A DNA stretch of 64,000 bases from positions 15,309 to 79,308 of IMG/VR virus record IMGVR_UViG_3300048588_000114. One strand, 5' to 3'. Within the stretch, counting starts at the first letter, position 1; each line of letters opens with the position of its first letter. A program made the translations under genes and the position numbers. This stretch comes from a virus. Taxonomy: Duplodnaviria > Heunggongvirae > Uroviricota > Caudoviricetes. The notes under the pieces were generated by a model. That model made no database searches. It worked only from the letters and a program-made list of their open reading frames with translations, and was not told where the DNA came from. Positions 5,592 through 63,931 of this stretch are shown here, piece by piece.

Positions 5592-5888
5592 ATGAAGAAC
5601 GGCGAAAAAACAATTAATGATAAGTCTGTAGAAATCACTTATTCAAAAGACTATCAAGGCTTATCTGTATATATTAATGGCGTTGAGCATTTCAATTTCC
5701 TTTGGGATAACTATTCACACAGGCAACAATGGAAAGACGGATATGAAGGTGTTAGATTTATGATAGAAATTACAATGAAGGAAGGTGAACCACTACTGCT
5801 TGGCTATGACGACAGAGATACGTGGGTGCGAATTATAGCTATTCTCAATGGAGCCTCTTCAAAGAAAAAGAAGATATATCACGGATAA
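5592..5888 (+). CDS. hypothetical protein
   Basis: 98 aa ORF. Confidence 0.45.
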   Translation: MKNGEKTINDKSVEITYSKDYQGLSVYINGVEHFNFLWDNYSHRQQWKDGYEGVRFMIEITMKEGEPLLLGYDDRDTWVRIIAILNGASSKKKKIYHG

Positions 5889-5936
5889 AATTAATCAAGC
5901 TGATAATTAGTCATTTACCCAATAATGGATAAAAAT

Positions 5937-5980
5937 CTTTGAAATATATTTGGTTTATGGGGAAATTCGCCTTATCTTAG
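5937..5980 (+). promoter_or_regulatory. Bacteroidetes-type promoter (-33 TTTG, -7 TATCTTAG)
   Basis: CTTTGAAATATATTTGG, then a 20 nt spacer, then TATCTTAG, about 27 nt upstream of the ATG at 6008. Same architecture at 7670, 9183, 24614 and 42223. Confidence 0.55.
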
Positions 5981-6007
5981 TAGCGAATTAATAAACAACC
6001 TCAAACC

Positions 6008-7611: not shown

Positions 7612-7669
7612 ATAATCATACTATTATTCAGTAAGTTATACTGAACTGAATAAAATAGTTTGAAATATA

Positions 7670-7700
7670 TTTGGTTTTAGCTAAAAAGTCCGTATCTTAG
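7670..7700 (+). promoter_or_regulatory. Bacteroidetes-type promoter (TTTG, 19 nt spacer, TATCTTAG)
   Basis: GTTTGAAATATATTTGGTTTTAGCTAAAAAGTCCGTATCTTAG upstream of ATG at 7736; near-identical to the 5937 and 9183 copies. Confidence 0.55.
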
Positions 7701-7735
7701 TGGCTGAATTAATAACCTCTTAAAACAAAAAAATC

Positions 7736-9061: not shown

Positions 9062-9089
9062 TCTGATTATTCCTTTCTGATTTATCCCA

Positions 9090-9121
9090 GTCCCGCCCCA
9101 ATAAGGCGGGATTGCTTTTTA
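9090..9121 (+). terminator. rho-independent terminator
   Basis: CCCGCC-CCAATAA-GGCGGG hairpin then ATTGCTTTTT. Confidence 0.65.
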
Positions 9122-9182
9122 AAATTAATTGCCCTAATAATCAGATAGTTATGAATTGAGGCCAAAAATAGTTTGAAATATA

Positions 9183-10324: not shown

Positions 10325-10353
10325 TAAGAGGTTGTTTTGAGGAGCCAAATCGA

Positions 10354-10386
10354 AGCCCCGCCCTAATCCGGCGGGGTTTTCTTTTG
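10354..10386 (+). terminator. rho-independent terminator
   Basis: CCCCGCC-CTAATCC-GGCGGGG hairpin followed by TTTTCTTTTG. Confidence 0.65.
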
Positions 10387-10765
10387 CCCTTAATCGTTCC
10401 CCCGGAGGGAAAGAGACCCGGTTGAGGCAAATCTAAATACAACCCCGATAAACACTCAAATAAGCCCTATAAGCAACGTTCAACCCTCAGCCCAATACAA
10501 AGTCCATCCGTTCACCCGCCAACCTAAAAATCACCTTAAAACAAAGATTTAGTGTTGGGAACATCAAACATATGAATCAATCTAACTTAAAACTGTCCAA
10601 GCCCACCGAAGAGCCGAAGAACTCAACCTCAAGAATACGACCCAGACCCCGGAGATAAGGGAAGGTAAGACCACTAACACCCCTGAGCAGTTATAGGCTA
10701 CTAAGAGACACCCTTGAGTGAACAATGTTATATAAGGTGTTTATGTACTCTAATGAATCAAACAT

Positions 10766-12106
10766 ATGAAGAAAGAGAACCTCGATAAGATAAGGGCTGC
10801 ACAACGGAAGGCCGCTGAACAAAATGCCAAAAAGAGGCTGGGCGATGATGATGCGTTCGATGAAATTCCCGCCGGGTCTAAGGTGAAGCTGCAAGATATG
10901 TCCAGAAGAAAGGGCATCGGGTCTGAGGACTTAGACGCTGAGATGGTTGGCGTGAAAGACAAGGAAGCATATCAGAAGTGGCGCCGGATGAAGAACCTAC
11001 CAATACTAAATGAAGGGATGATCATTCCGACCTCTGACGGTGGATCAGCGAATATGGGCTGGCTTCCTCACTACTTTGAGAAGCGTACACTCCACTTACC
11101 CCAGGCTGAACAGGATGCGCTGAATGTAAAGAGAGAAATATACAACAAAATACACCTTCAGGCGGTGTTCTTGAAGCATAAGGCTTATGGGACTAATCCG
11201 GTGAAGAAAGCGCAGGAGCGGGCTTCCGGGAGGGCTAAGGAGTTGGGGTTCTTAAAGGCAAAGAAGGCACAACTGATTGAGTTATTCGGCAAAATGTTCT
11301 CCGTGGATGAGATTCACAAGATAATCGTGGAGGAGTGGAACTTCCCAATAGCCAAGGCAGACATTATAGACTTCAAGATGAACAACTTGTCTGTTATCTC
11401 AGAGAAACAAGAGATACACAAGCGTGAGCACTCTGACCTTAGGCTAGTTCATAAGCGTTCACGGTTGGAAGAACTAACGTATCTATATAACCGCTTGAAT
11501 GATAAGATTAAAGTCACTACTAACCGGGAAGATATACGGGTGATGACCTCTATACTGGTCGAGATACGTAGAGAGATAGAGGGTGAGAAGGTAACTATTA
11601 ATGGTAAGCTGGACGTGAACATAGAAGCCGACATCAATACCCACCTTCAGAAAGAAGTGTTCAAGGAGTTCAGCTTAGTACAGATCATTATGGGGCGTGT
11701 TGCTTCACGGATGAGAACCCCGGTGTATAGGATTATACAAGGATTACAGAACTCATATTATGCCCGGTACAACCGTTTCTTAGGTAATGAGCCGGAAGAC
11801 GTTGATTGGGAAGAGATAGAACACCCATCCCAGATGGGGTTTGACTTCGAGAAGATCGCTGCTCAGTACCGGGAGAAAGAGGTGCGCTACGCAAATGAAT
11901 TAACTGCCCATAAGGCAAAAGAGGCCGAAATCCAGACCAGAGTGGCCTCAAGCGGTATAAAGGAAATGTTGATGGCCCGGATTGCTGAAAAGACTGGCGA
12001 TGTTAAGGCTCAAAAGTTACAAGTAAATGTGTTGGAGTTAGAGAAGAAGAAGGCAGAGGCATCTGATAAGTCCGGGCTAAGGACTAAGCGACCTGATCAA
12101 GGTTAG
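10766..12106 (+). CDS. hypothetical charged, coiled-coil-rich protein
   Basis: 446 aa ORF after a 440 bp non-coding region. Confidence 0.55.
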   Translation: MKKENLDKIRAAQRKAAEQNAKKRLGDDDAFDEIPAGSKVKLQDMSRRKGIGSEDLDAEMVGVKDKEAYQKWRRMKNLPILNEGMIIPTSDGGSANMGWLPHYFEKRTLHLPQAEQDALNVKREIYNKIHLQAVFLKHKAYGTNPVKKAQERASGRAKELGFLKAKKAQLIELFGKMFSVDEIHKIIVEEWNFPIAKADIIDFKMNNLSVISEKQEIHKREHSDLRLVHKRSRLEELTYLYNRLNDKIKVTTNREDIRVMTSILVEIRREIEGEKVTINGKLDVNIEADINTHLQKEVFKEFSLVQIIMGRVASRMRTPVYRIIQGLQNSYYARYNRFLGNEPEDVDWEEIEHPSQMGFDFEKIAAQYREKEVRYANELTAHKAKEAEIQTRVASSGIKEMLMARIAEKTGDVKAQKLQVNVLELEKKKAEASDKSGLRTKRPDQG

Positions 12107-14733: not shown

Positions 14734-15099
14734 ATGATGAAGCAAAAGAATAACATCCGTATGAGAGTACAGGGAGCAGAGGAGCCAGCCGCTGACTTCG
14801 CCAAGAGATTAGAGAAGGATTGTGATGCGTTGGCTAAGGAACTCAATGCCGTCACCCCGCCTATCTGTGTAATGACTGCTTCTTCGTCCGGTAGGATGAC
14901 AGCAACCATTCAGATCATCACTAACGTGGATGACGATAGAGAAGAGGCTGTTTTCAATGGCTTTGAGCTTCAGATGGCCTACGAACTATACAAAGACCAG
15001 CCTGACTATAATCCAGCAGCACCCTTGGATGGCTATAATGACTGGCTTATCAGGCTCAAAAGAAAAGATTTGAACCCGGAGAAGTCAGGTAAAGACTAA
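14734..15099 (+). CDS. hypothetical protein
   Basis: 121 aa ORF followed by two tandem terminator hairpins. Confidence 0.5.
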   Translation: MMKQKNNIRMRVQGAEEPAADFAKRLEKDCDALAKELNAVTPPICVMTASSSGRMTATIQIITNVDDDREEAVFNGFELQMAYELYKDQPDYNPAAPLDGYNDWLIRLKRKDLNPEKSGKD

Positions 15100-15136
15100 A
15101 CGATACTGCGATGAGCTGAGTAGCAGCAGTTGAGAA

Positions 15137-15175
15137 AACCCCCGGTGACCGCAACGAACCGGGGTTTTTCTTTTA
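15137..15175 (+). terminator. rho-independent terminator
   Basis: AAAACCCCCGGT-loop-ACCGGGGTTTTT. Confidence 0.65.
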
Positions 15176-15198
15176 ACAGCGTTTATGAGAGTTCTAAG

Positions 15199-15266
15199 AG
15201 GGGCGGTGTTTTGGGTAGCCGCTCCCCCTAACCAGCCCCCGTTTTGACCAGCGGGGGTTTCTTTTT
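15199..15266 (+). terminator. second tandem terminator hairpin(s)
   Basis: GGGGCGG...CCGCTCCCC and CCCCCG...CGGGGG hairpins followed by TTTCTTTTT. Confidence 0.5.
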
Positions 15267-15288
15267 AGCTAAAACAGCGTTAATTTAG
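15258..15288 (+). promoter_or_regulatory. putative promoter (-7 TAATTTAG) with paired TTAGCTAA palindromes
   Basis: TTTTTAGCTAAAACAGCGTTAATTTAGCTAAAC lies 15 nt before ATG 15303. Confidence 0.35.
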
Positions 15289-15302
15289 CTAAACAATAAA
15301 TC

Positions 15303-24543: not shown

Positions 24544-24613
24544 CGGCTTAGCTAAGGGCCACAAAATTAATCATGCTGAAATTCAACGTTTTACCCATTA
24601 AAGCAAAAATAAA

Positions 24614-24645
24614 TTTGGTTTCTGTGTAAAGATCGCTTAACTTAG
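24614..24645 (+). promoter_or_regulatory. Bacteroidetes-type promoter (TTTG, 20 nt spacer, TAACTTAG)
   Basis: AAATAAATTTGGTTTCTGTGTAAAGATCGCTTAACTTAGTGG upstream of ATG 24673; near-identical to the copy at 42223. Confidence 0.55.
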
Positions 24646-24672
24646 TGGTCATAAACTTAAAACAAGCAAATC

Positions 24673-25893
24673 ATGAAAACAACAATTACAACGATAATCT
24701 TAGTGTTATCAATCAGCCTACGGGCTCAAACCTGCTCAATTGGCGCTTCTCCCATGTTCCAGAACGTCAACTGTCAACTGTCCTCAATACAGGGAGTTAC
24801 CATTTCATCCACTCCAGCCAATGTCTCCTACACGATTTACAATCCAAGCGGGACTTCATTTACATCCGGCGCTAATACTACGGTATATCAGCCACTCGGA
24901 ACTGGCTCATATACAGTTAAGTTGCTGGATATAAATACTGGATGCACTAACACCGCTCAGTTCGCAGTTGCTTCTGCTGACGTTTATCCTACTTACACCC
25001 TATCGCCTTCGTCATTTGTATTAGGCTGTGCGCCTAAAGACGTGTTTATTCTGGGCATAACAACCACTACTTCATCAGGTGCTCCGACATATACGGTGCT
25101 TTCTCCGGGTAGCCCTACAGCGGTTCCGAACGCCCCACTCGGCATTCAGAATAATTATAACATCAACTCAACTGGAGTTTGGACAGTAATTGTTAGAGGT
25201 AACAATGGTTGCCAAACACGTGTGCCTATTACAGTGACTGAAAATACTATTGCTCCGACCTTTTCAGTGTCGGCGTTTATAAGCACCTTGACCTGCTCAC
25301 AGCCTACTACCTCTATTGCGGGGACTTCTTCAGCACAGGTAAATTATGTGTGGGCAGGTCAAACAACTACTGTTACAGGTGGAATGCTCACCGTATCCAC
25401 CAATACAGCTATCCCTTCTAATGGTCTGATTAACAGCTACACGCTCAATGTGATTGACGCTAATAACGGCTGTACTTCAAGCACTATCTTGCCTGTATAT
25501 CAGAATATAACCACTCCTACACTGAATATCGGGTCTACATATACGTTAGATTGTTGGTCTAACTCAGTATTGATTGACCCAATTAATCCTAACCTAAATT
25601 ACAATTTCAGCTGGACAGGAGGCATAAATACACCATCTTTATCCGTGACTGCTCCCGGAGGCTATACACTTCAAACTACTAATCCTACAAACGGATGCTC
25701 ATTGATGAGTTCGGTGACCGTGTACACCTGTCAGAGCGTAGGAATTGAAGAATATGCGCTTGATCCAAATGCGGTATTCTCCTATACAGACCTAATGGGC
25801 CGTCCGATGGATAAAGCCTTTAATGTCCCGATGATAGAGTGGGTAAAGGTGGGAGACAGAATATTGAGCCGTAAATTACTAATTCAAAACTAA
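24673..25893 (+). CDS. secreted SprB-repeat protein with short T9SS-type C-terminal tail
   Basis: Signal peptide MKTTITTIILVLSISLRAQ, then five ~80 aa Cys-framed repeats (e.g. YNFSWTGG...GGYTLQTTNPTNGCSLMSSVTV) resembling SprB repeats, ending in VKVGDRILSRKLLIQN. Confidence 0.6.
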   Translation: MKTTITTIILVLSISLRAQTCSIGASPMFQNVNCQLSSIQGVTISSTPANVSYTIYNPSGTSFTSGANTTVYQPLGTGSYTVKLLDINTGCTNTAQFAVASADVYPTYTLSPSSFVLGCAPKDVFILGITTTTSSGAPTYTVLSPGSPTAVPNAPLGIQNNYNINSTGVWTVIVRGNNGCQTRVPITVTENTIAPTFSVSAFISTLTCSQPTTSIAGTSSAQVNYVWAGQTTTVTGGMLTVSTNTAIPSNGLINSYTLNVIDANNGCTSSTILPVYQNITTPTLNIGSTYTLDCWSNSVLIDPINPNLNYNFSWTGGINTPSLSVTAPGGYTLQTTNPTNGCSLMSSVTVYTCQSVGIEEYALDPNAVFSYTDLMGRPMDKAFNVPMIEWVKVGDRILSRKLLIQN

Positions 25894-25896
25894 AAT

Positions 25897-26082
25897 ATGG
25901 GGAATATAACCGAAGATTTCCTGAATGAACCAGTATCGTTAGAGACCAAGCTAAAAGTCTCTAACGATATGGCATTTATGAGCCTAGTCACTGACTTAGG
26001 TTACCGGACAGGAATGTGGTCACCGGAGGAAGAAGAGACCTATAAAAAGTTGATGAAGAAGGAATCAAGGACACAGCGATGA
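25897..26082 (+). CDS. hypothetical small protein
   Basis: 61 aa ORF. Confidence 0.4.
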   Translation: MGNITEDFLNEPVSLETKLKVSNDMAFMSLVTDLGYRTGMWSPEEEETYKKLMKKESRTQR

Positions 26083-26175
26083 TGCCGGCAAACCATCACT
26101 GCGACATAGAGCGAATAATGGATTTGATCAAATATATGCGTCAGCGTTTAGATAAAACAGAAGAAAATTTGAAAA

Positions 26176-26460
26176 ATGGAAACAACGAGACCGAAGGACT
26201 TTGACCCACAGGCTATTGTAGACGCCCTCAACGGGACGGCTAATGATATTCAGGAGGCTCTGGATGACTATTATCCGGGAATGCTAGATACAGACATGTT
26301 ATCGACAGATCATGATATCATTGATAATCAGATTTTCAAGTGTTCCTGTTGTGGCTGGTGGTGTGAAATCCACGAAGCCGTAGAGAACGATGGTGGGAGC
26401 GAAGATATATGTACGGACTGTAAAGATGAAGGTGATGATGGAACCGACGAAGAAGAGTGA
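26176..26460 (+). CDS. highly acidic small Zn-ribbon protein (DNA-mimic-like candidate)
   Basis: 94 aa, about 30 percent D/E, with CSCCGWWC...CTDC cysteine pairs. Confidence 0.5.
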   Translation: METTRPKDFDPQAIVDALNGTANDIQEALDDYYPGMLDTDMLSTDHDIIDNQIFKCSCCGWWCEIHEAVENDGGSEDICTDCKDEGDDGTDEEE

Positions 26461-26782
26461 GGAAAAGCCTAAAATCCTATTAATTGATGACGATATTAGC
26501 CCTAATTTAAAGGCTTTAGCGGAATTACATTGTTATTTCAAGCAATTAGCTTTAGAATCAGTAGGCATACCAGCAGATAAGATTGACTTTAAGATTAGGA
26601 AAGTAGATGATGCGAATGTTGCGATAGACTGCTCATTTATGCCGCCTAAGCCAGTAAATAGGATTTTCATTAAGGGTTTTGTCTTTAATATCCACAAGGA
26701 ACTAAGAATCAAAGCAAAGCGACCTAAATGCACCCCTAACAGACGGCTTCGTGAAATTGTGAAGCAAATATATGGGTGCTAA
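26426..26782 (+). CDS. hypothetical protein
   Basis: ORF 26390-26782; an internal ATG (26426 or 26435) is the likely start, overlapping the acidic gene's end. Confidence 0.45.
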   Translation: MKVMMEPTKKSEEKPKILLIDDDISPNLKALAELHCYFKQLALESVGIPADKIDFKIRKVDDANVAIDCSFMPPKPVNRIFIKGFVFNIHKELRIKAKRPKCTPNRRLREIVKQIYGC

Positions 26783-26895
26783 TGCTTTCTTGTGGAGTGA
26801 GACAATAAAAGTATTGACCCGGAGGTAAAAGAGCAGGAGAAGCAAAATAAATTGGTGAATTCGACCAGTTATAGATCAACCTTAAACTAATTAAT

Positions 26896-27210
26896 ATGAC
26901 CGGAGATATCAAAACACAAATGCTGCCTCAAGAAATTGAGGATAAAATTAGAGCCGCTATGCCAGAATGGATAGAGCCGGGAACTTATGAAGAGGCTAAA
27001 GCCTATTTTGAATTAGGAGAGCCTAAGATGAAAATGGAAGTGCTCCAAGACGCAGAAAAGTTTAAAGGTGCTATCACTGACGTTAGGACTACTGAAGATC
27101 AATCTGTAATCATCTCAGTAGCTACTCCTCCAGGAAAAACAGAAAAAGATTGTTGGAATGCCCTATTTAGAGCAGGCATTGATGAAATGATTAGGAGACA
27201 AAACTCCTAA
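26896..27210 (+). CDS. hypothetical protein
   Basis: 104 aa ORF. Confidence 0.5.
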   Translation: MTGDIKTQMLPQEIEDKIRAAMPEWIEPGTYEEAKAYFELGEPKMKMEVLQDAEKFKGAITDVRTTEDQSVIISVATPPGKTEKDCWNALFRAGIDEMIRRQNS

Positions 27211-27239
27211 AACACAAGGAGTGCGAGCCTTGAACCTCC

Positions 27240-27395
27240 CAGTTTGAGCGCATTGTAAGCGGGGCAGGCAACCTTAGCAGTTCACTGAGCCCCGCCCTTA
27301 CTAAGAAGTCAGGTACAGCAGTGGGGGCTAACCCATGAGCGTTGTAGGATTGGTAGTTTTCCCAACCGATGACCAATGTGTGTGGCTGGCCTGAC
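27240..27395 (+). ncRNA. candidate structured non-coding element (GC-rich multi-hairpin in a 230 bp ORF-free gap)
   Basis: Nested stems AGTCAGG...CCTGACT and GCGGGGC...GCCCCGC with TGGG..CCCA and TTGG..CCAA inner stems, followed by a TTTCTTTATT T-run. No credible ORF. Confidence 0.25.
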
Positions 27396-27440
27396 TTTCT
27401 TTATTATTAGACAGTTAAGAAAGTAACTAAATGATGAACT

Positions 27441-27650
27441 ATGTTGGTTACTATACTCAAAGACGGCAGAACGGCCAAGGCGCTAACCTCCGGCAAAGTT
27501 TTTATAATTCAAGGACTTCTAATACAGACAAAACGCCAATTAGACCCAGTGTTTTACTCAATGGAAGACAGATTGACTCAACTAATTTGTAGCCCCGGTA
27601 CTATACACAAAGCAACAGCATTATCAAACCGCAAAATAAATATCATATGA
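27441..27650 (+). CDS. hypothetical small protein
   Basis: 69 aa ORF. Confidence 0.35.
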   Translation: MLVTILKDGRTAKALTSGKVFIIQGLLIQTKRQLDPVFYSMEDRLTQLICSPGTIHKATALSNRKINII

Positions 27651-28252
27651 CACCTGAAAAATTAGCCGAATTAAAGGCTCAAACCATCGCTTTCTACAAG
27701 CGCAAGCCTGAAGAAGGCACTGGAGTATTCCGTCACGTAGGATTTGACGACAACGAAGACTTCCTGTTCAATAGTTTAACGTCCTTAGATAAGCCCTTTC
27801 CGATTCGTAAAGTAGATGTAGCTAAGAAATACGAAAAACTTGAATCATACAACTTAGGCTCTCTTGAGTTCGTTAAATGCCCACGTCTAATTGGTACACG
27901 ATTTGAAGATGAAGATCAATGTTGGAATGTCCTTCCTAATGGCGATAAGACTTGCTCAGGCTGTGGGTCATATCATCCTAAAGAGTGGATTGATTGGTTA
28001 GATAAAGCCACCGACCCTTCTACAGAAGACAGACTAACCACCACTGATAAGGGCTATAAGATGTATGTGGAGAAGCCCGGAGTAAGAAATGCTAGCGAAG
28101 GGGCTATTAAAGTCTATCTTCAACACGTCAAGCAGTATGCAGAAGAGCATAAACTCAACATTGAAGAACTTGATAAGAAAATTCATGCTGCTGCGATAGC
28201 TGGCAATACTAAATTTCAGGCAAAAATGAATAAGATGAGAGAAGGCGAATAA
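27647..28252 (+). CDS. hypothetical protein with CxxC-containing segment
   Basis: 201 aa; KTCSGCGSYHP. Confidence 0.55.
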   Translation: MTPEKLAELKAQTIAFYKRKPEEGTGVFRHVGFDDNEDFLFNSLTSLDKPFPIRKVDVAKKYEKLESYNLGSLEFVKCPRLIGTRFEDEDQCWNVLPNGDKTCSGCGSYHPKEWIDWLDKATDPSTEDRLTTTDKGYKMYVEKPGVRNASEGAIKVYLQHVKQYAEEHKLNIEELDKKIHAAAIAGNTKFQAKMNKMREGE

Positions 28253-28308
28253 TCAAAGTTATTGGATAAAAGACAATTTGTGTGCTGTCTTCCTCATGTT
28301 CCTGGAAG

Positions 28309-28366
28309 GCCCATCCTATAAGGCTCTATGTGCTCGTAGCTTTATTGGGATGGGCTTTTTCTTTTT
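28309..28366 (+). terminator. rho-independent terminator
   Basis: GCCCATCC ... GGATGGGC stem followed by TTTTTCTTTTT. Confidence 0.55.
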
Positions 28367-28384
28367 AGCTAATTCAGAGCTAAG
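28365..28384 (+). repeat. 15-mer motif TTAGCTAATTCAGAG, copy 3
   Basis: Immediately 3' of terminator; TAGCTAAG repeated again 12 nt downstream. Confidence 0.45.
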
Positions 28385-28433
28385 TGTAGCTAAGTGCTGT
28401 TGTAAAGCGACATTAATTCTAAACCGTACTAAA

Positions 28434-28943
28434 ATGAAAGAATCTGAAATTAAGGCTTATTTAGATAAGCAATTCGCAAGTGTTGGAGTATCTAAATTAG
28501 CAATCGAATTAGGCTTTAAGAAGCCATGTTTACCATGGAATGGTAGTCATTATAGGCCACTTTGGCAACAAATTATTGACTGGCTCAGGGAAGATCACAA
28601 CATCATTGTAGAGCCATCCTATGACTTTGCTGAAACACAAACTTACAATGTAGCTCTAATCCAGGAAGGCGATAGTCCAGTGTATCATGCCACTGATATA
28701 TTAGAGGAAAAAGACTACTATGAAGCCCGGCGTAGAGGGGTAGAGCAGGCTCTCCAGATGGTAAAGGATGGGACTATGGACTATCTACAATTTGAAGCGT
28801 GGTTTACCAGCGTTTTAGAATTATGGGCAGAGGCCGGGCTATATAATCGTATTGCGATAGATAAAGACAATGCGAGACTACATTACGATCTTGGAACTAC
28901 ACCTGAGCAGTATGTAAATCAAGCAAAAGAAGAATTCAAATAG
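28434..28943 (+). CDS. hypothetical protein
   Basis: ORF 28278-28943; the first 52 codons span terminator and motif, so ATG 28434 (MKESEIKAY) is the likely start. Confidence 0.55.
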   Translation: MKESEIKAYLDKQFASVGVSKLAIELGFKKPCLPWNGSHYRPLWQQIIDWLREDHNIIVEPSYDFAETQTYNVALIQEGDSPVYHATDILEEKDYYEARRRGVEQALQMVKDGTMDYLQFEAWFTSVLELWAEAGLYNRIAIDKDNARLHYDLGTTPEQYVNQAKEEFK

Positions 28944-28945
28944 TC

Positions 28946-29116
28946 ATGACTAAGAAAAGAAAGAAATCAATTAAGCGCTATGGCGGCTCATATAAGATTA
29001 AAGCTAAGAAACTTGAGAAGAATTTAGCCAAAGAAGAAGCTGAACTTAGGGAAGAGTTGGCAAAATTAGACGAAGTCAAGAGACAAGTTGATCAGATGAT
29101 TAAAATAGCGCACTAA
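28946..29116 (+). CDS. small basic coiled-coil protein (56 aa)
   Basis: MTKKRKKSIKRYGG...; below ORF-track cutoff, read manually. Confidence 0.3.
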   Translation: MTKKRKKSIKRYGGSYKIKAKKLEKNLAKEEAELREELAKLDEVKRQVDQMIKIAH

Positions 29117-31163: not shown

Positions 31164-31186
31164 TTTAATCACAAAAAGTTTAGTCA

Positions 31187-31220
31187 AACCCCCACCGCAA
31201 GTGGGGGTTTTTGATTTTTT
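31187..31220 (+). terminator. rho-independent terminator
   Basis: AAACCCCCAC-CGCAA-GTGGGGGTTT followed by TTGATTTTTTT. Confidence 0.7.
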
Positions 31221-32780: not shown

Positions 32781-32885
32781 ACATGAAACTCAAAGCATTT
32801 ATCTTCGTTTCAGCTTTGGTTCTCATCGGGTGCGCCTTTACTATCGGATATGTAATTTGCCACTAACCCACCAAAGCGATGTGAG

Positions 32886-32920
32886 TTCCCCCACTAAAAA
32901 TGGGGGAATTTGCTTTTATT
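32886..32920 (+). terminator. rho-independent terminator
   Basis: TCCCCCA-CTAAAAA-TGGGGGA followed by ATTTGCTTTTATT. Confidence 0.6.
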
Positions 32921-38016: not shown

Positions 38017-38057
38017 ACAATAATTCAGCTATAATCCTGATAAGGTTAAGTAATGCT

Positions 38058-38090
38058 AAAAGGGTGGGGCTTAGGCTTCACCCTTTTTGT
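38058..38090 (+). terminator. rho-independent terminator
   Basis: GGGTG-GGGCTTAGGCTT-CACCC followed by TTTTTG. Confidence 0.55.
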
Positions 38091-38118
38091 TCATTGTTAT
38101 TTATCAAAAGTACTAATT

Positions 38119-39855
38119 ATGCTAAAGAGTAGCATTGACCTAAGTGTGCCTAAATTGATCTTACCTAACACAGCAAATGCTTCGTATGGTAGGAACGATG
38201 TGGTAACACTAGACCAAGCACGTGAAGTTTACCGGGTTGTAGATGACCTCATTGATGGACTGGATGATGTGTCCCTTGATTTGCTATTTAGTGCCTCAGA
38301 GCATGATGTAGACAGGGTTTTATCCACTTTCTTTGAAGAATCATATGCTGTAATGTATGGCGGTGAGACACGTATCAAGGAAACATCTGTCAATTATCTG
38401 GAGAGATTATCTGAGAATATAGAAGAAGTATTGAGGGTTGAGAATTTCAACTATTTCCTAACCAATGTTCTCACTAATTTTGATATAAATTGGCACCACT
38501 TAGAGTGGGGGAGTTTAGCTCAGAATAATCGCTTCACTAATTTTATTGCTCCACGTGACCACGGAAAGACCTATTTTTTCTCTAATGCAATGACTTGTTG
38601 GCGTCTTTATCGCTATAAAGACCCGGATAGTGTAGCTAGACATCTAAGAAAAAGAAATGAACTTAATCGAAAAGGCTTCATTATCACTAATGAGATGGAG
38701 TTGGCCGAAGAAATCTTAGAGACTGTAAAGAATACCATAGAGGAACATGATATTTTACATGAAAGGCTCTATCCTAATACAAAAGACAACTGGTCAAAGC
38801 GTAGTATTAAGTGTAAAAACGGAGCAAGAGTAGGTTTAAAATCCTACGGTGGTAGCTTCCGGGGGCGCCACCCCGGTTGGATTACAGTGGATGACTTCTT
38901 AAAAGACAATGTGCTCTATTCTGAGGTTCAAAGAAAGAAAGCAATCGACTACTTTCACTCAGTAATTATGAATGCTATTTCTCCGGGTGGTAGCGTTACT
39001 GTAGTTGGAACACCATTCCATCAAAATGACCTCTACGGAGACCTAAAGACCAAGAAAACTTGGAAATGCTTTGAATATCCTGCTATTACTCCGCATGGAG
39101 ATGTATTATGGAGAACCCGTTATTCCTATAAAGACCTTATTGAGAAGCGTGAGGCGCAAGGAAATATCATTTTCTCTCGTGAAATCTTAGTTGTACCCAT
39201 ATCAAGCAACTCTACTTTATTCCCTTGGAATGTATTGAAGCGTTGTTTCATAGGTATGCAAGACTACACATTAGTGAAAAATAGAGATTCATTCCCTAAG
39301 AAATTCACAAAAGTAGTAACTGCTTGTGATTTCGCAAGAAGCGCCAATGTAGGTGCTGATTATTCAGCATTTACAACTTGGGGGATAGACGAGAATGAGG
39401 ATATGTGGCTATTGCATATCTGGAGGGCTAAAGGTCGGTCATTCCGTGATCAAATCAATGCCGTTAAGTCAATAAACGCTAACTTCAGGCCAGATGTAAT
39501 TGTGATGGAGGTCAACCAATTCCAGCAGATTATGGCTGATATTGCTGAAGAAGAAGGATTAACCAATGTTGTTCCACATACTACTACTGGTAAGAATAAG
39601 CATGACTTTATCATCGGTGTTCCGGGCTTAGCTATCCTATTTGAGAAAGGAAAAATACACATACCACGTGGAGATCAGTACAGCCGGGATGCCTCTGATG
39701 TTCTCATGTCTGAATTAAGTGCGATAGCATGGACAGATGAGGGAATACAGGGTGTTGGAGAGCATGATGATATGGCTATATCTACTTGGTTGGGAACAAT
39801 TGGAGCAAGAAAAATAGGTGTTGGCTTTGGACTTAGCTTCTTAGCGGCAGCATAA
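38119..39855 (+). CDS. terL: terminase large subunit (TerL)
   Basis: ATPase Walker A FIAPRDHGKTYFFS and Walker B ITVDDF. C-terminal RNase-H-like nuclease acidic motifs VVTACDFARS...DYSAFTTWG, DVIVMEVNQFQ and GEHDDMAIS. Confidence 0.85.
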   Translation: MLKSSIDLSVPKLILPNTANASYGRNDVVTLDQAREVYRVVDDLIDGLDDVSLDLLFSASEHDVDRVLSTFFEESYAVMYGGETRIKETSVNYLERLSENIEEVLRVENFNYFLTNVLTNFDINWHHLEWGSLAQNNRFTNFIAPRDHGKTYFFSNAMTCWRLYRYKDPDSVARHLRKRNELNRKGFIITNEMELAEEILETVKNTIEEHDILHERLYPNTKDNWSKRSIKCKNGARVGLKSYGGSFRGRHPGWITVDDFLKDNVLYSEVQRKKAIDYFHSVIMNAISPGGSVTVVGTPFHQNDLYGDLKTKKTWKCFEYPAITPHGDVLWRTRYSYKDLIEKREAQGNIIFSREILVVPISSNSTLFPWNVLKRCFIGMQDYTLVKNRDSFPKKFTKVVTACDFARSANVGADYSAFTTWGIDENEDMWLLHIWRAKGRSFRDQINAVKSINANFRPDVIVMEVNQFQQIMADIAEEEGLTNVVPHTTTGKNKHDFIIGVPGLAILFEKGKIHIPRGDQYSRDASDVLMSELSAIAWTDEGIQGVGEHDDMAISTWLGTIGARKIGVGFGLSFLAAA

Positions 39856-42031: not shown

Positions 42032-42222
42032 TTGCCGTTTTGGTGGTAAATTCTGCCTAAGGGAAATGTTAGGCAGTTAGCCAATACTTTACTTGCCCCG
42101 GAGGTTAAAACGGCATTAAAAGCAAAATATCAATAGTGATCTAACTTTAGCTATTCAAAGCAAAATTCTCCCATTGACTAACAGCACGTTACGTTCAAAA
42201 TTCAAAGTTTATCCAAAATAAA

Positions 42223-42254
42223 TTTGCTGCTTGTATCAAAAATTATTACCTTAG
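42223..42254 (+). promoter_or_regulatory. Bacteroidetes-type promoter (TTTG, 20 nt spacer, TACCTTAG)
   Basis: AAATAAATTTGCTGCTTGTATCAAAAATTATTACCTTAGTGG upstream of ATG 42304. Confidence 0.5.
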
Positions 42255-42303
42255 TGGCGATAGTCAAAGAAAACACCATTATTAACCAATAAAACCGCAA
42301 TTT

Positions 42304-59969: not shown

Positions 59970-61703
59970 ATGAAGAAGAATAATAATTTCAAATTCTGGG
60001 TTCCCTTAGAATTTTCCAAGGCTAAGAATGAAACCACCGGAGAAGTTGAGATGAAAATAGGCGGGATTGCCTCTACATCAGCGAAAGACAGCGATGATGA
60101 GGAATTAGACCCGGCAGGTTTTGATCTCAGTGTCCTAAAATCCCATGGTGTCATCAATTGGCACCACATGCAAAAGACCAATCCAGATGCGATTATTGGC
60201 GAACCCACTAAGGCAGAACTAACTCCAAAAGGGTTGTATTTAGAGGCAAAGCTCTATCCAGATAGTGAATTAGCTAAAAAAGTTTACAAATTAGCTGAAG
60301 TTTTAGCTAAAAATTCTAAAACCCGTAGACTTGGATTTTCCATCGAAGGCAAGAAGACAGAAGTTGACCCTAATGATGAAACAAAAATCCTGAAGGCAAA
60401 GATCACCGGGTGCGCCATCACCTATCTTCCAAAGAATCCTACCACATTTGCTGATATCATCAAAGGTCATGAGGTTGAGGAACCTATCTATGAATTTGAT
60501 GAGGAGATAGAAAAAAGTGACCTTTCAATCAAGGCATTGAATAACGCCGCTAATGGCGGTGCAGTTAAATTCTTAGTAAATCTAACGACCAAGGACGGAA
60601 AGACCGTGAAGGTCACTGAAGATGGTGAAATAACAGTTGATATGTCTAAATCATTAACAACAGAAGCCGGGAGCGGGGGTGCTCTCAAGAAAGAGCATGT
60701 AGATTCAGGGCTCAAGGAAACAATCAAAACAAGTGATAAACCTAAGGAATTAACAAAAGCCGAAGCCTTTGATAAAATATTTTCTGATTTCCCAGATATA
60801 GACATTCAAAAGGCTAAGCAAATTTTCAATACAACAACTAAAATTACTGCCATGAGCAAAGAAAAAACCAAACCTACAAAGGATGAAATCGAGAAGGCCT
60901 ACGCTGTTTTAGGTCTCAACAATGAATCAGAAGATGATAACATTGAAAAAGGCGAAAACACTACCGAATCAGAAGATGAGGTAAAACCGCCAGCAAAGAA
61001 ACCAGCAGCACCAGCTAAAACAGCTACTGTTGAAAAAGGTGGAGGCGACAAAGGCCCAGATGAAGAAGAGGAGGAAGAGGAAGAAGAGGACGAAGAACCA
61101 GCGAAACCAGCAAAAAAAGATATGAATAAAGCACAATCCAGCGACCTGATGTATTTCCAGAAGGGCGACAATTACGTAGCCATGGTAAACAAAGGCGGCG
61201 AACTTCAGGAAGTCCCTGATAAATTATTCCAAAAGACCGCAAGCGGCTACCAGGAAATCATCAAAACCCCTATCGAGAAATCAATTGAAGAAAACATTGG
61301 AAAACTGCTCAATGGCCAGTCAGACCTTCAAAAAGCTATCGGTGTAGTGGTTGGTGACCTGAAAGCTCAGGTAAGTGGTCTGCAAAAACAGGTGGAAGAA
61401 ATGAGTGGACAGCCCACAGGCCGTAAATCGGCTACAAACGCCACAGTGAAAGAAAAGAAATTTGCTGGTGCAAATGATGACCTTACCAAAGGCCGTACCG
61501 ATGGCAAGACCCTCTCTATCAAGAATCGTAACGCAGTATTGTCAGTGCTTGAGAAAGCAATGTACTTGCCGCTTGAGAAAGGCCAAGGTGGTCTCGATGC
61601 TGGTTTTGAGAAAGCAATGACCACTTTTGAAGCCAGCGGGCAGATTTCTGCACAAAACGTAGGCCGTCTTGAGCGTGAATTCGGAATATTCCTCGTGGAC
61701 TAA
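59970..61703 (+). CDS. prohead protease (HK97 gp4-like) fused to scaffold-like C-terminal region
   Basis: N-terminal KIGGIASTS...DPAGFDL...INWHH...LGFSIEGK resembles the HK97-family prohead protease core. C-terminal half is coiled-coil with poly-Glu tract EEEEEEEEDEE. Confidence 0.6.
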   Translation: MKKNNNFKFWVPLEFSKAKNETTGEVEMKIGGIASTSAKDSDDEELDPAGFDLSVLKSHGVINWHHMQKTNPDAIIGEPTKAELTPKGLYLEAKLYPDSELAKKVYKLAEVLAKNSKTRRLGFSIEGKKTEVDPNDETKILKAKITGCAITYLPKNPTTFADIIKGHEVEEPIYEFDEEIEKSDLSIKALNNAANGGAVKFLVNLTTKDGKTVKVTEDGEITVDMSKSLTTEAGSGGALKKEHVDSGLKETIKTSDKPKELTKAEAFDKIFSDFPDIDIQKAKQIFNTTTKITAMSKEKTKPTKDEIEKAYAVLGLNNESEDDNIEKGENTTESEDEVKPPAKKPAAPAKTATVEKGGGDKGPDEEEEEEEEEDEEPAKPAKKDMNKAQSSDLMYFQKGDNYVAMVNKGGELQEVPDKLFQKTASGYQEIIKTPIEKSIEENIGKLLNGQSDLQKAIGVVVGDLKAQVSGLQKQVEEMSGQPTGRKSATNATVKEKKFAGANDDLTKGRTDGKTLSIKNRNAVLSVLEKAMYLPLEKGQGGLDAGFEKAMTTFEASGQISAQNVGRLEREFGIFLVD

Positions 61704-63343: not shown

Positions 63344-63931
63344 TTCAACGTTAAAAACACTACATTAACCACTAAAACAAATAATATCATGTCAAAAAAA
63401 GTCAAAGTTGTGTGTAAACAAGCACAGTATCACGGTAAAAAAATGAATCTGCCTATCGCAGGAGAAACTGAGATTGGCGAAGATGGCTCTGCAATGGTTT
63501 CTGAGGAAGCAGCAGAACAATTGGTAGAAGGAACAAATGATTGGGAATATGGTGACAGTAAACCAATTGTGAAGAAAGTGAAGCCAGCCCCGATTGTTGA
63601 AGAAGAAAGAGAAGAAGAGGAGGTTGAGGAAGAAACTGAGGAAGAGGAGACCGAAGAAGAAAAGACCGATGACGAAGAGGCATCTAAATCCAATGAAAAT
63701 CCTGCCGAGGAGCAACCCAATGAGGCAGAGGTGGACAAAGAGCTGAAGCAAGCCTTAATCCGCAAATTCACTGGCCCAAATGCTGATACGGAATTGAAGG
63801 AAATGGCATCAAAAGCTGGAGTGTCCAAAACAGTTATAGGTAAGGCTAAAGGGAAAACCGACCTTATCAACATGATTCTTGGTAAAATGGAGTTAGCTGA
63901 TAAGGTTGAGTTGCTCAAAGCACAAGCCTAA
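63341..63931 (+). CDS. acidic poly-Glu protein (head decoration/scaffold-like candidate)
   Basis: 196 aa; EEEREEEEVEEETEEEETEEE tract; the GAA-rich run creates spurious ORFs on both strands. Confidence 0.5.
   Translation: MFNVKNTTLTTKTNNIMSKKVKVVCKQAQYHGKKMNLPIAGETEIGEDGSAMVSEEAAEQLVEGTNDWEYGDSKPIVKKVKPAPIVEEEREEEEVEEETEEEETEEEKTDDEEASKSNENPAEEQPNEAEVDKELKQALIRKFTGPNADTELKEMASKAGVSKTVIGKAKGKTDLINMILGKMELADKVELLKAQA

Follow-up and report, generated by a model that had tools for sequence, protein, structure and literature searches.

Introduction

The put site of HK022, a double hairpin of about 65 nt, renders RNA polymerase resistant to terminators (PMC8632103; PMC11658703). This site, the nutR-tR1 region of lambda, the small RNAs derived from 3' untranslated regions, the protective 3' stem-loops and the intrinsic terminators are the described systems that stand closest to the locus reported here. 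The locus is an ORF-free gap in an uncultured phage of about 110 kb, in which almost no genes have a known function, and it was analysed within a window of 64,000 nt, the whole stretch of DNA under analysis. We know of no put- or nut-like phage system described in Bacteroidota, the phylum to which the host of this phage likely belongs.

In the gap, two adjacent hairpins (H1 and H2) follow the stop codon of a gene for a 104-aa protein, and a third, terminator-type hairpin (H3) precedes a gene for a 69-aa protein. With a probability of about one half, we read the gap as a structured 3' end with a leaky, enlarged intrinsic terminator between two cistrons. What had been suspected to be a mystery RNA gene is most likely a fairly ordinary gene-end signal, that is, transcription punctuation at the end of one transcription unit. 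Judged by sequence comparison, what is conserved in it is a small double hairpin that goes with the upstream gene, and what stands out most is a terminator that has gained a lineage-specific insert.

The assignment of the host to Bacteroidota is likely, because the relatives of the large terminase (TerL), the homologues of a 406-aa protein and the TAnnTTTG repeats of the window all point there. The nearest characterised relatives of the T4-type TerL are Bacteroides phages DAC19, DAC20 and DAC22 and others (36.7% identity). The Por/T9SS C-terminal sorting domain PF18962 is present in distant homologues (26-34% identity) of the 406-aa protein (24673-25893), which suggests that the host belongs to Bacteroidota and that a surface-protein module may have come from the host.

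Position and Composition of the Gap

The gap extends over 230 nt from the stop codon of the 104-aa gene (TAA, 27208-27210) to the start of the next conserved ORF (Table 1). The GC content of 27211-27430 is 0.491 compared with 0.405 for the whole window, and it is the highest among the 17 window gaps of at least 80 nt; the runner-up, 15100-15302 (0.488), contains two plain terminators. A sequence-only reading of the locus had described a GC-rich, ORF-free gap of 230 bp with hairpins, and these figures bear it out. A search for hidden coding in the gap found stops in all three plus-strand frames and a 61-aa ORF on the minus strand without support. All sizeable ORFs of the window lie on the plus strand, and the gap element is co-oriented with the genes. 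The same reading had held that the gap is not a tRNA, in agreement with ARAGORN, which finds no tRNA or tmRNA gene in the whole window. A scan against Rfam 15, proposed there as a check for a structured RNA, gave no match at the gathering score, and the four matches at E <= 10 (snoRNA families and Acido-1) are at chance level, with 15-17 bits against cut-offs of 50-60.

Other features of the window were recorded beside the gap. A larger ORF-free gap of 441 bp at 10325-10765 contains a plain terminator (Table 1), followed by about 350 nt of C/A-rich sequence up to an ATG at 10766, and may contain a further non-coding element. In two ORFs, at 61044-61105 and 63599-63672, GAA/GAG-rich runs with a 9-nt period encode acidic, Glu-rich stretches of low complexity.

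Table 1. Features of the gap and its surroundings in the window, with positions of the counterparts in the related contig L001.
Feature	Position	Strand	Description	Position in L001
Upstream 104-aa gene	26896-27210	+	Only homologue in L001 (74% identity), which also has H1-H2-H3	
ORF-free gap	27211-27440	+	Between the end of the 104-aa ORF and the next conserved ORF	5640-5794
H1	27222-27257	+	Hairpin of about 14 pairs, UGCGAGCCUUGAAC / GUUUGAG(C)GC(A)UUGUA, loop CUCCCA	5643-5676
Linker	27258	+	One unpaired A between H1 and H2; same single A in L001	5677
H2	27259-27295	+	Bipartite hairpin; outer stem GCGGGGC/GCCCCGC	5678-5718
H3	27303-27408	+	Terminator-type; A-rich 5' flank, base stem, U-rich run to 27408	5722-5753
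Lineage-specific insert	27314-27389	+	About 76 nt in the H3 loop	
Pre-start region	27409-27440	+	(TTAGA)CAGTTAAGRA ... AAATG, then ATG at 27441	5761-5794
Downstream 69-aa gene	27441-27650	+	4-nt overlap with the 201-aa gene at 27647-28252	
Large terminase gene	38053-39855		T4-type; 10.6 kb from the gap	
Plain intrinsic terminators in GC-rich gaps	10356-10380, 15138-15172, 15234-15262, 31186-31210, 32881-32913			

Hairpins and Folding Energies

H1 begins 11 nt past the stop codon of the 104-aa gene and contains four G-U pairs, which makes it specific to the plus strand. In H2, the outer stem (27259-27265 with 27289-27295) is followed inwards by a 2-bp middle stem AG/CU and a 3-bp apical stem AAC/GUU, which closes a 7-nt loop, CUUAGCA (27273-27279). 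The two hairpins span 74 nt with one nucleotide between them, and H3 lies 8 nt downstream. The base stem of H3 reads AAGAAGUCAGG(UA)CAGC ... GCUG(G)CCUGACUUUCUU, that is, AAGUCAGG/CCUGACUU plus CAGC/GCUG, and then comes the U-run UUUCUUUAUUAUU; in the DNA, the T-rich run TTTCTTTATTATT occupies 27396-27408. The insert in its loop folds into a 4-bp extension and two inner hairpins, UGGG/CCCA and UUGG/CCAA.

All the stems named in the sequence-only reading were found. Its outer stem joins AAGTCAGG (27306-27313) to CCTGACTT (27390-27397) and encloses the TGGG/CCCA and TTGG/CCAA stems. The GCGGGGC/GCCCCGC stem, which had also been placed inside it, sits upstream of the outer stem.

Compared with shuffled sequences, the fold of the whole gap has z = -1.32 on the plus strand and z = -0.15 on the minus strand. 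H1 alone reaches z = -3.1, H2 alone z = -1.6 and the outer-stem element H3 z = -2.3, while H1 and H2 folded together give z = -0.65 on the plus strand and +0.08 on the minus strand. In the related contig L001, the syntenic element reaches z = -4.2 on the plus strand and -1.9 on the minus strand. Folding energy alone therefore makes a mixed to weak case for the window gap, which as a whole folds no better than its shuffles. The stronger support comes from sequence comparison with this one relative, which backs H1, H2 and the base of the outer stem and does not back the nested inner stems, missing in the relative. The gap very probably folds as a plus-strand RNA. The fold is confined to this strand because many of its pairs are G-U, which would read as A-C mismatches on the opposite strand.

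Relatives of the Locus

Only two relatives were found, L001 and L074. Protein searches with both immediate flanks covered 5.8 billion sequences and matched the window's own phage (L003, with identical DNA) and L001 only, a Logan contig of 34 kb whose flanking proteins are 68-80% identical to those of the window. The second relative, L074, is a contig of 105.9 kb that was found through the 406-aa neighbour, with 41% identity in that protein and 77% in the Band_7 protein. The search with the 406-aa neighbour also gave L075 and L076, both of which end short of the syntenic point. Neither 26000-29000 nor the gap had a BLAST match among 50,697 phage records, and scanning IMG/VR with the flanking proteins returned no relatives. 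The phage clade is rare.

Pattern scans were built from the conserved islands of the element, and each match was inspected individually. The pattern CCAGTTTGA..CCTTAGCA gave 58 matches in IMG/VR, all in unrelated coding sequence; CCAGTTTGA..TTGTA..CTTAGCA gave 12 matches in the JGI metagenomes, all by chance; and TTGTAA..CCTTAGCA..GTTCAC gave 14 matches in GTDB genomes and 3 in IMG/VR, again all by chance. A pattern specific to the insert had no match in IMG/VR. Furthermore, nothing similar to the insert occurs elsewhere in the window or in L001, the insert is without an Rfam match, and extra copies of H1, H2 or the insert were found neither in the window nor in L001 or L074.

Conservation of H1 and H2 in L001

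The syntenic gap of L001 is 155 nt long and contains three hairpins in the same order as the window. Its H1 shares the islands UGCGAG, CCAGUUUGA and UUGUA with the window; with the last one extended to UUGUAA, these islands and the H2 loop CUUAGCA are identical in the two sequences. When the alignment of H1 is anchored on the second UGCGAG repeat of L001 (5649), 10 pairs are shared, of which 9 are unchanged and 1 is a double change, with none broken. The H2 of L001 has the same three-tier architecture around the identical loop, and its stems are UGGUGAGU/GCUUGCCA, AC/GU and GGC/GCC, compared with GCGGGGC/GCCCCGC, AG/CU and AAC/GUU in the window. Here the shared pairs number 12: 4 unchanged, 2 changed on one side and 6 changed on both, with none broken. 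Both hairpins together have 22 shared pairs (13 unchanged, 2 one-sided, 7 double changes, 0 broken), counts that, like the alifold shuffle test, lean toward structure because the alignment was made by hand, guided by structure, from two sequences. The hand alignment was used since MAFFT alignments of the gap misalign the hairpins.

The nucleotide identity of H1-H2 is 47% when the sequences are aligned by structure and 65% when they are aligned globally without constraint, compared with 68-77% in the flanking genes. With the loop fixed, a hairpin of the depth of H2 arises in 3.4% of the flank shuffles for the window and in 1.6% for L001. The shared pairing in H1 and H2 is good suggestive evidence for structure, short of proof. 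It suggests a two-hairpin RNA with invariant loops, kept by compensatory changes just ahead of a terminator. The earlier idea of a structured RNA is supported for the plus-strand fold of H1, H2 and the base of the outer stem, which are kept in L001; the nested stems that it had stressed are missing there and belong to a non-conserved insert in a terminator homologue.

These results also bear on the possibility that the gap is an element acting as DNA (an origin, a pac/cos site or an operator) or a non-functional spacer in which GC-rich hairpins arose by chance. The whole-gap z of only -1.3, the presence of the element in two carriers only and an insert without relatives anywhere searched would all suit such an origin. 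We hold it unlikely, as the stems use G-U pairs and fold on the plus strand only, and seven double changes with no broken pair are unlike neutral drift. At the DNA level, the cumulative GC skew shows a nearly monotonic rise and does not turn near the gap, there are no iterons or direct repeats (only chance-sized repeats in 26800-27900), the gap is GC-rich and not AT-rich, and TerL is distant (Table 1). The packaging or replication element offered in the sequence-only reading finds no footing in these data.

H3 as a Probable Enlarged Terminator

In L001, the place of the window's outer stem is taken by a plain intrinsic terminator (z = -6.5). It reads GUCGGGG-UAUUG-CCCCGGC-UUUUCU, or, with its flanks, GAGAAAGUCGGGG-UAUUG-CCCCGGCUUUUCUC, and its window counterpart is AAGUCAGG, the 76-nt insert and CCUGACUU-UCUUUAUUAUU. 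H3 is homologous to the L001 terminator in its base pairs and in both flanks, A-rich on the 5' side and U-rich on the 3' side. Because a plain terminator stands at this place in L001, the outer stem and the inner stems of the window can be understood as a terminator of the L001 type with its loop replaced. By this comparison, H3 is a terminator homologue in which an insert of about 76 nt, specific to the lineage, has taken the place of the loop. The insert is missing in L001, where the loop is UAUUG, and on the alignment it accounts for the difference of 75 nt between the two gaps (230 and 155 nt). It explains the unusual length, the GC content and the nested hairpins of the gap.

The plain intrinsic terminators listed in Table 1 are the usual punctuation of this phage in GC-rich gaps. 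A consensus terminator scan, which allows loops of 3-8 nt only, misses H3. On the transcribed strand, H3 is a G+C-rich hairpin followed by a U-rich tract; it is not compact and unbranched, as the L001 terminator is, since its loop of about 76 nt contains two inner hairpins, and from its sequence alone it counts as a terminator of a derived, non-canonical kind. It is a hairpin of about 95 nt that contains a three-way junction and is followed by an interrupted U-run, UUUCUUUAUUAUU, and it may terminate poorly or not at all.

Two other terminators of the window provide a comparison. Those at 31186-31210 and 32881-32913 are nearly identical to L001 8850-8874 and 10461-10492, in two phages with only 59-80% identity between their proteins, so that their conservation exceeds that of the neighbouring genes. 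Because these two are almost identical between the window and L001, H3 stands out as an odd, diverged terminator. Relaxed constraint could account for its strong divergence, and so could a different role.

Linkage to the Upstream Gene

The 69-aa protein has homologues in both relatives, with 80% identity in L001 and 52% in L074, where it is conserved to the C-terminal RKINII. In L074, the 69-aa gene starts 33 nt behind the stop of an unrelated 286-aa gene, and the locus lacks H1, H2, H3 or another terminator, and the 104-aa gene. As the 69-aa gene of L074 does without the element, the hairpins travel with the upstream 104-aa gene and are not a leader for the gene at 27441. The pre-start motif CAGTTAAGRA..AAATG, by comparison, occurs in the window, in L001 and in L074 (14901-14928), and its presence in all three phages assigns it to the 69-aa gene, separate from the hairpin element.

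The sequence-only reading had offered a riboswitch-like leader for 27441. A leader, riboswitch or attenuator that senses a ligand or a protein for the 69-aa gene would place structure and a terminator directly upstream of that gene, as is the case here with about 32 nt from the U-run to the ATG. This is very improbable, given that the L074 homologue follows the previous stop so closely and has no leader, that no Rfam aptamer is matched even at E <= 10, and that no promoter was found upstream of H1. Furthermore, inspection by eye of the MFE and centroid folds of both sequences revealed no exclusive antiterminator pairing of at least 5 bp with the 5' half of H3.

The 104-aa protein was considered as a candidate RNA-binding partner. 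It has no credible match in Pfam, PHROGs or NCBIfam, and its AlphaFold model (pLDDT 72) has no neighbour in the PDB with E < 0.5.

Some details of the start region were noted in passing. A second ATG lies 10 nt upstream of the 69-aa start in another frame (27431 and 27441 in the window, 5785 and 5795 in L001, 14919 and 14929 in L074); of both frames the downstream one is conserved, and the arrangement AAATG...ATG is present in all three phages. In L074, the 69-aa homologue at 14929-15132 was left uncalled by the gene caller of the source, which produces an apparent gap of 237 bp that tblastn shows to be coding.

Promoters Around the Gap

The AT-rich gaps 5889-6007, 7612-7735, 9062-9172, 24544-24644 and 42081-42303 share a repeat of about 68 nt that ends in TAnnTTTG, with the endings TATATTTG or TAAATTTG. 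We take TAnnTTTG to be the -7 promoter box of Bacteroidota, and these repeats are probably promoters of the phage for the host polymerase. Within the window, TTTG-N-TAnnTTTG as a two-part pattern shows no enrichment. No TAnnTTTG box was found in or near the gap or in 27409-27440, and the nearest promoter repeat of this kind, at about 24565-24653, lies about 2.6 kb upstream.

Another recurrent motif is the palindrome TTTAGCTAAA, with 87 matches at no more than one mismatch in the window, compared with 31 +/- 6 expected. Examples are 15265/15285, 17004/17025, 28365/28385, 60270/60303, 7677 and 9191. Exact copies are often paired about 20 nt apart, just past terminators and ahead of start codons, and the motif could be a phage-specific promoter or operator.

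The promoter survey touches on whether H1, H2 and H3 form an independent gene for a trans-acting small regulatory RNA of about 150-190 nt, with its own promoter inside the end of the 104-aa gene, an RNA that H3 would terminate and that would act by pairing of its conserved loops. Three hairpins, of which the last is a terminator with a U-run, are a typical build of bacterial small RNAs, and the conserved single-stranded loops could be seed regions. Upstream of H1, no TAnnTTTG box, sigma-70-like promoter or TTTAGCTAAA is conserved between the window and L001, as far as the poorly defined promoters of this phage and its host can be recognised. The distance from the stop codon to H1 is only 4-11 nt, and complements to the conserved loops are not enriched in the window, where those of the H2 loop number 17 (13.8 expected) and those of the H1 island 13 (16.4 expected). 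An independent gene therefore appears quite unlikely, and a small RNA derived from the 3' end is possible.

Proposed Termination and Read-Through

If the gap is a structured 3' end with a leaky terminator, it would be the untranslated end of a plus-strand transcription unit that closes with the 104-aa gene. Past the stop codon, the transcript would form H1, the unpaired A and H2, and then the terminator-type H3 between an A-rich tract and a U-rich run, where RNA polymerase coming from upstream would stop in part. In the terminated transcript, H1, H2 and H3 would cap the 3' end and protect it from 3' exonucleases, and a small RNA of about 190 nt could persist from this capped end. Expression of the 69-aa and 201-aa genes would fall to the polymerases that read through, with H3 as an attenuator between the cistrons. 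The downstream genes probably depend on this read-through, because the 32 nt between H3 and the ATG at 27441 contain no recognisable promoter. The comparison shows how the gap is built, that its structure is conserved in one relative and specific to one strand, and that it is linked to the gene upstream; termination, read-through, the stabilising role and any small-RNA product are inferred.

Some observations fit this preferred reading less well. Only one relative is informative, and the energies in the window are unimpressive (z = -1.3 for the gap and -0.65 for H1-H2). The branched H3 of about 95 nt with its interrupted U-run UUUCUUUAUUAUU is not canonical. The conserved single-stranded islands (CCA of CCAGUUUGA, and CUUAGCA) suggest specific recognition, which a mere stabiliser would not need.

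The islands would be at home in a module for the control of read-through similar to nutR-tR1 or put, in which H1-H2 is a cis-acting RNA site that makes polymerase resist H3. Such a site, whether it binds a phage or host factor or affects polymerase directly, would time the expression of the 69-aa, 201-aa and later genes. By analogy, the layout agrees, with a gene, a double hairpin, a terminator and a next gene with no promoter between. The one-nucleotide spacing and the span of 74 nt resemble the HK022 put double hairpin of about 65 nt (PMC8632103), and the invariant CUUAGCA and CCA(GUUUGA) stand among fast-changing stems, as in a recognised site. Hairpins and terminator are both present in the window and L001 and both missing in L074, a joint pattern that equally fits a gene gained or lost as a block with its own 3' end. 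The element occurs in two sequences only and showed no sequence or Rfam similarity to antitermination RNAs. It is not promoter-proximal, given the distance of about 2.6 kb to the nearest recognisable promoter repeat, and no candidate RNA-binding antiterminator protein was found, the neighbours being without family matches. We regard control of read-through by H1-H2 as a tentative possibility, the foremost among the alternatives. The more specific proposal, that a phage of Bacteroidota has in H1-H2 a new RNA site for antitermination that works by itself or together with a phage factor, is doubtful.

If H1-H2 does control read-through, it would open a way into the temporal regulation of genes in phages of Bacteroidota, a poorly understood subject. 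In addition, a putative terminator hairpin that has absorbed a branched insert of about 76 nt would be a natural test of loop tolerance.

Comparison With Known Systems

The resemblance to lambda nutR-tR1 and HK022 put is, by analogy, one of layout only. The order of a gene, a structured RNA site, a terminator and the next gene is common to them, and the double hairpin of 74 nt is comparable in size to the put hairpins of about 65 nt (PMC8632103), with loops conserved and stems variable here. No similarity in sequence was established, and the site of the window is not promoter-proximal. Moreover, no antiterminator protein was identified at this locus, no boxA-like element was noticed there, and the likely host phylum, Bacteroidota, is a different one.

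The small RNAs derived from 3' untranslated regions and the protective 3' stem-loops also have an RNA structure right after the stop codon, share the terminator of the mRNA and have no promoter of their own, as here. The difference is that the conserved loops of H1-H2 have no enriched complementary sites in the window.

Compared with intrinsic terminators, the H3 of the window differs in its branched loop of about 76 nt, in place of the canonical 3-8 nt, and in its interrupted U-run. It has in common with them a G+C-rich stem, a U-rich run next to it and an A-rich tract before it, and it stands at the end of a cistron in the orientation of the genes. Furthermore, the homologous site of L001 is a textbook example of an intrinsic terminator, and the phage has others.
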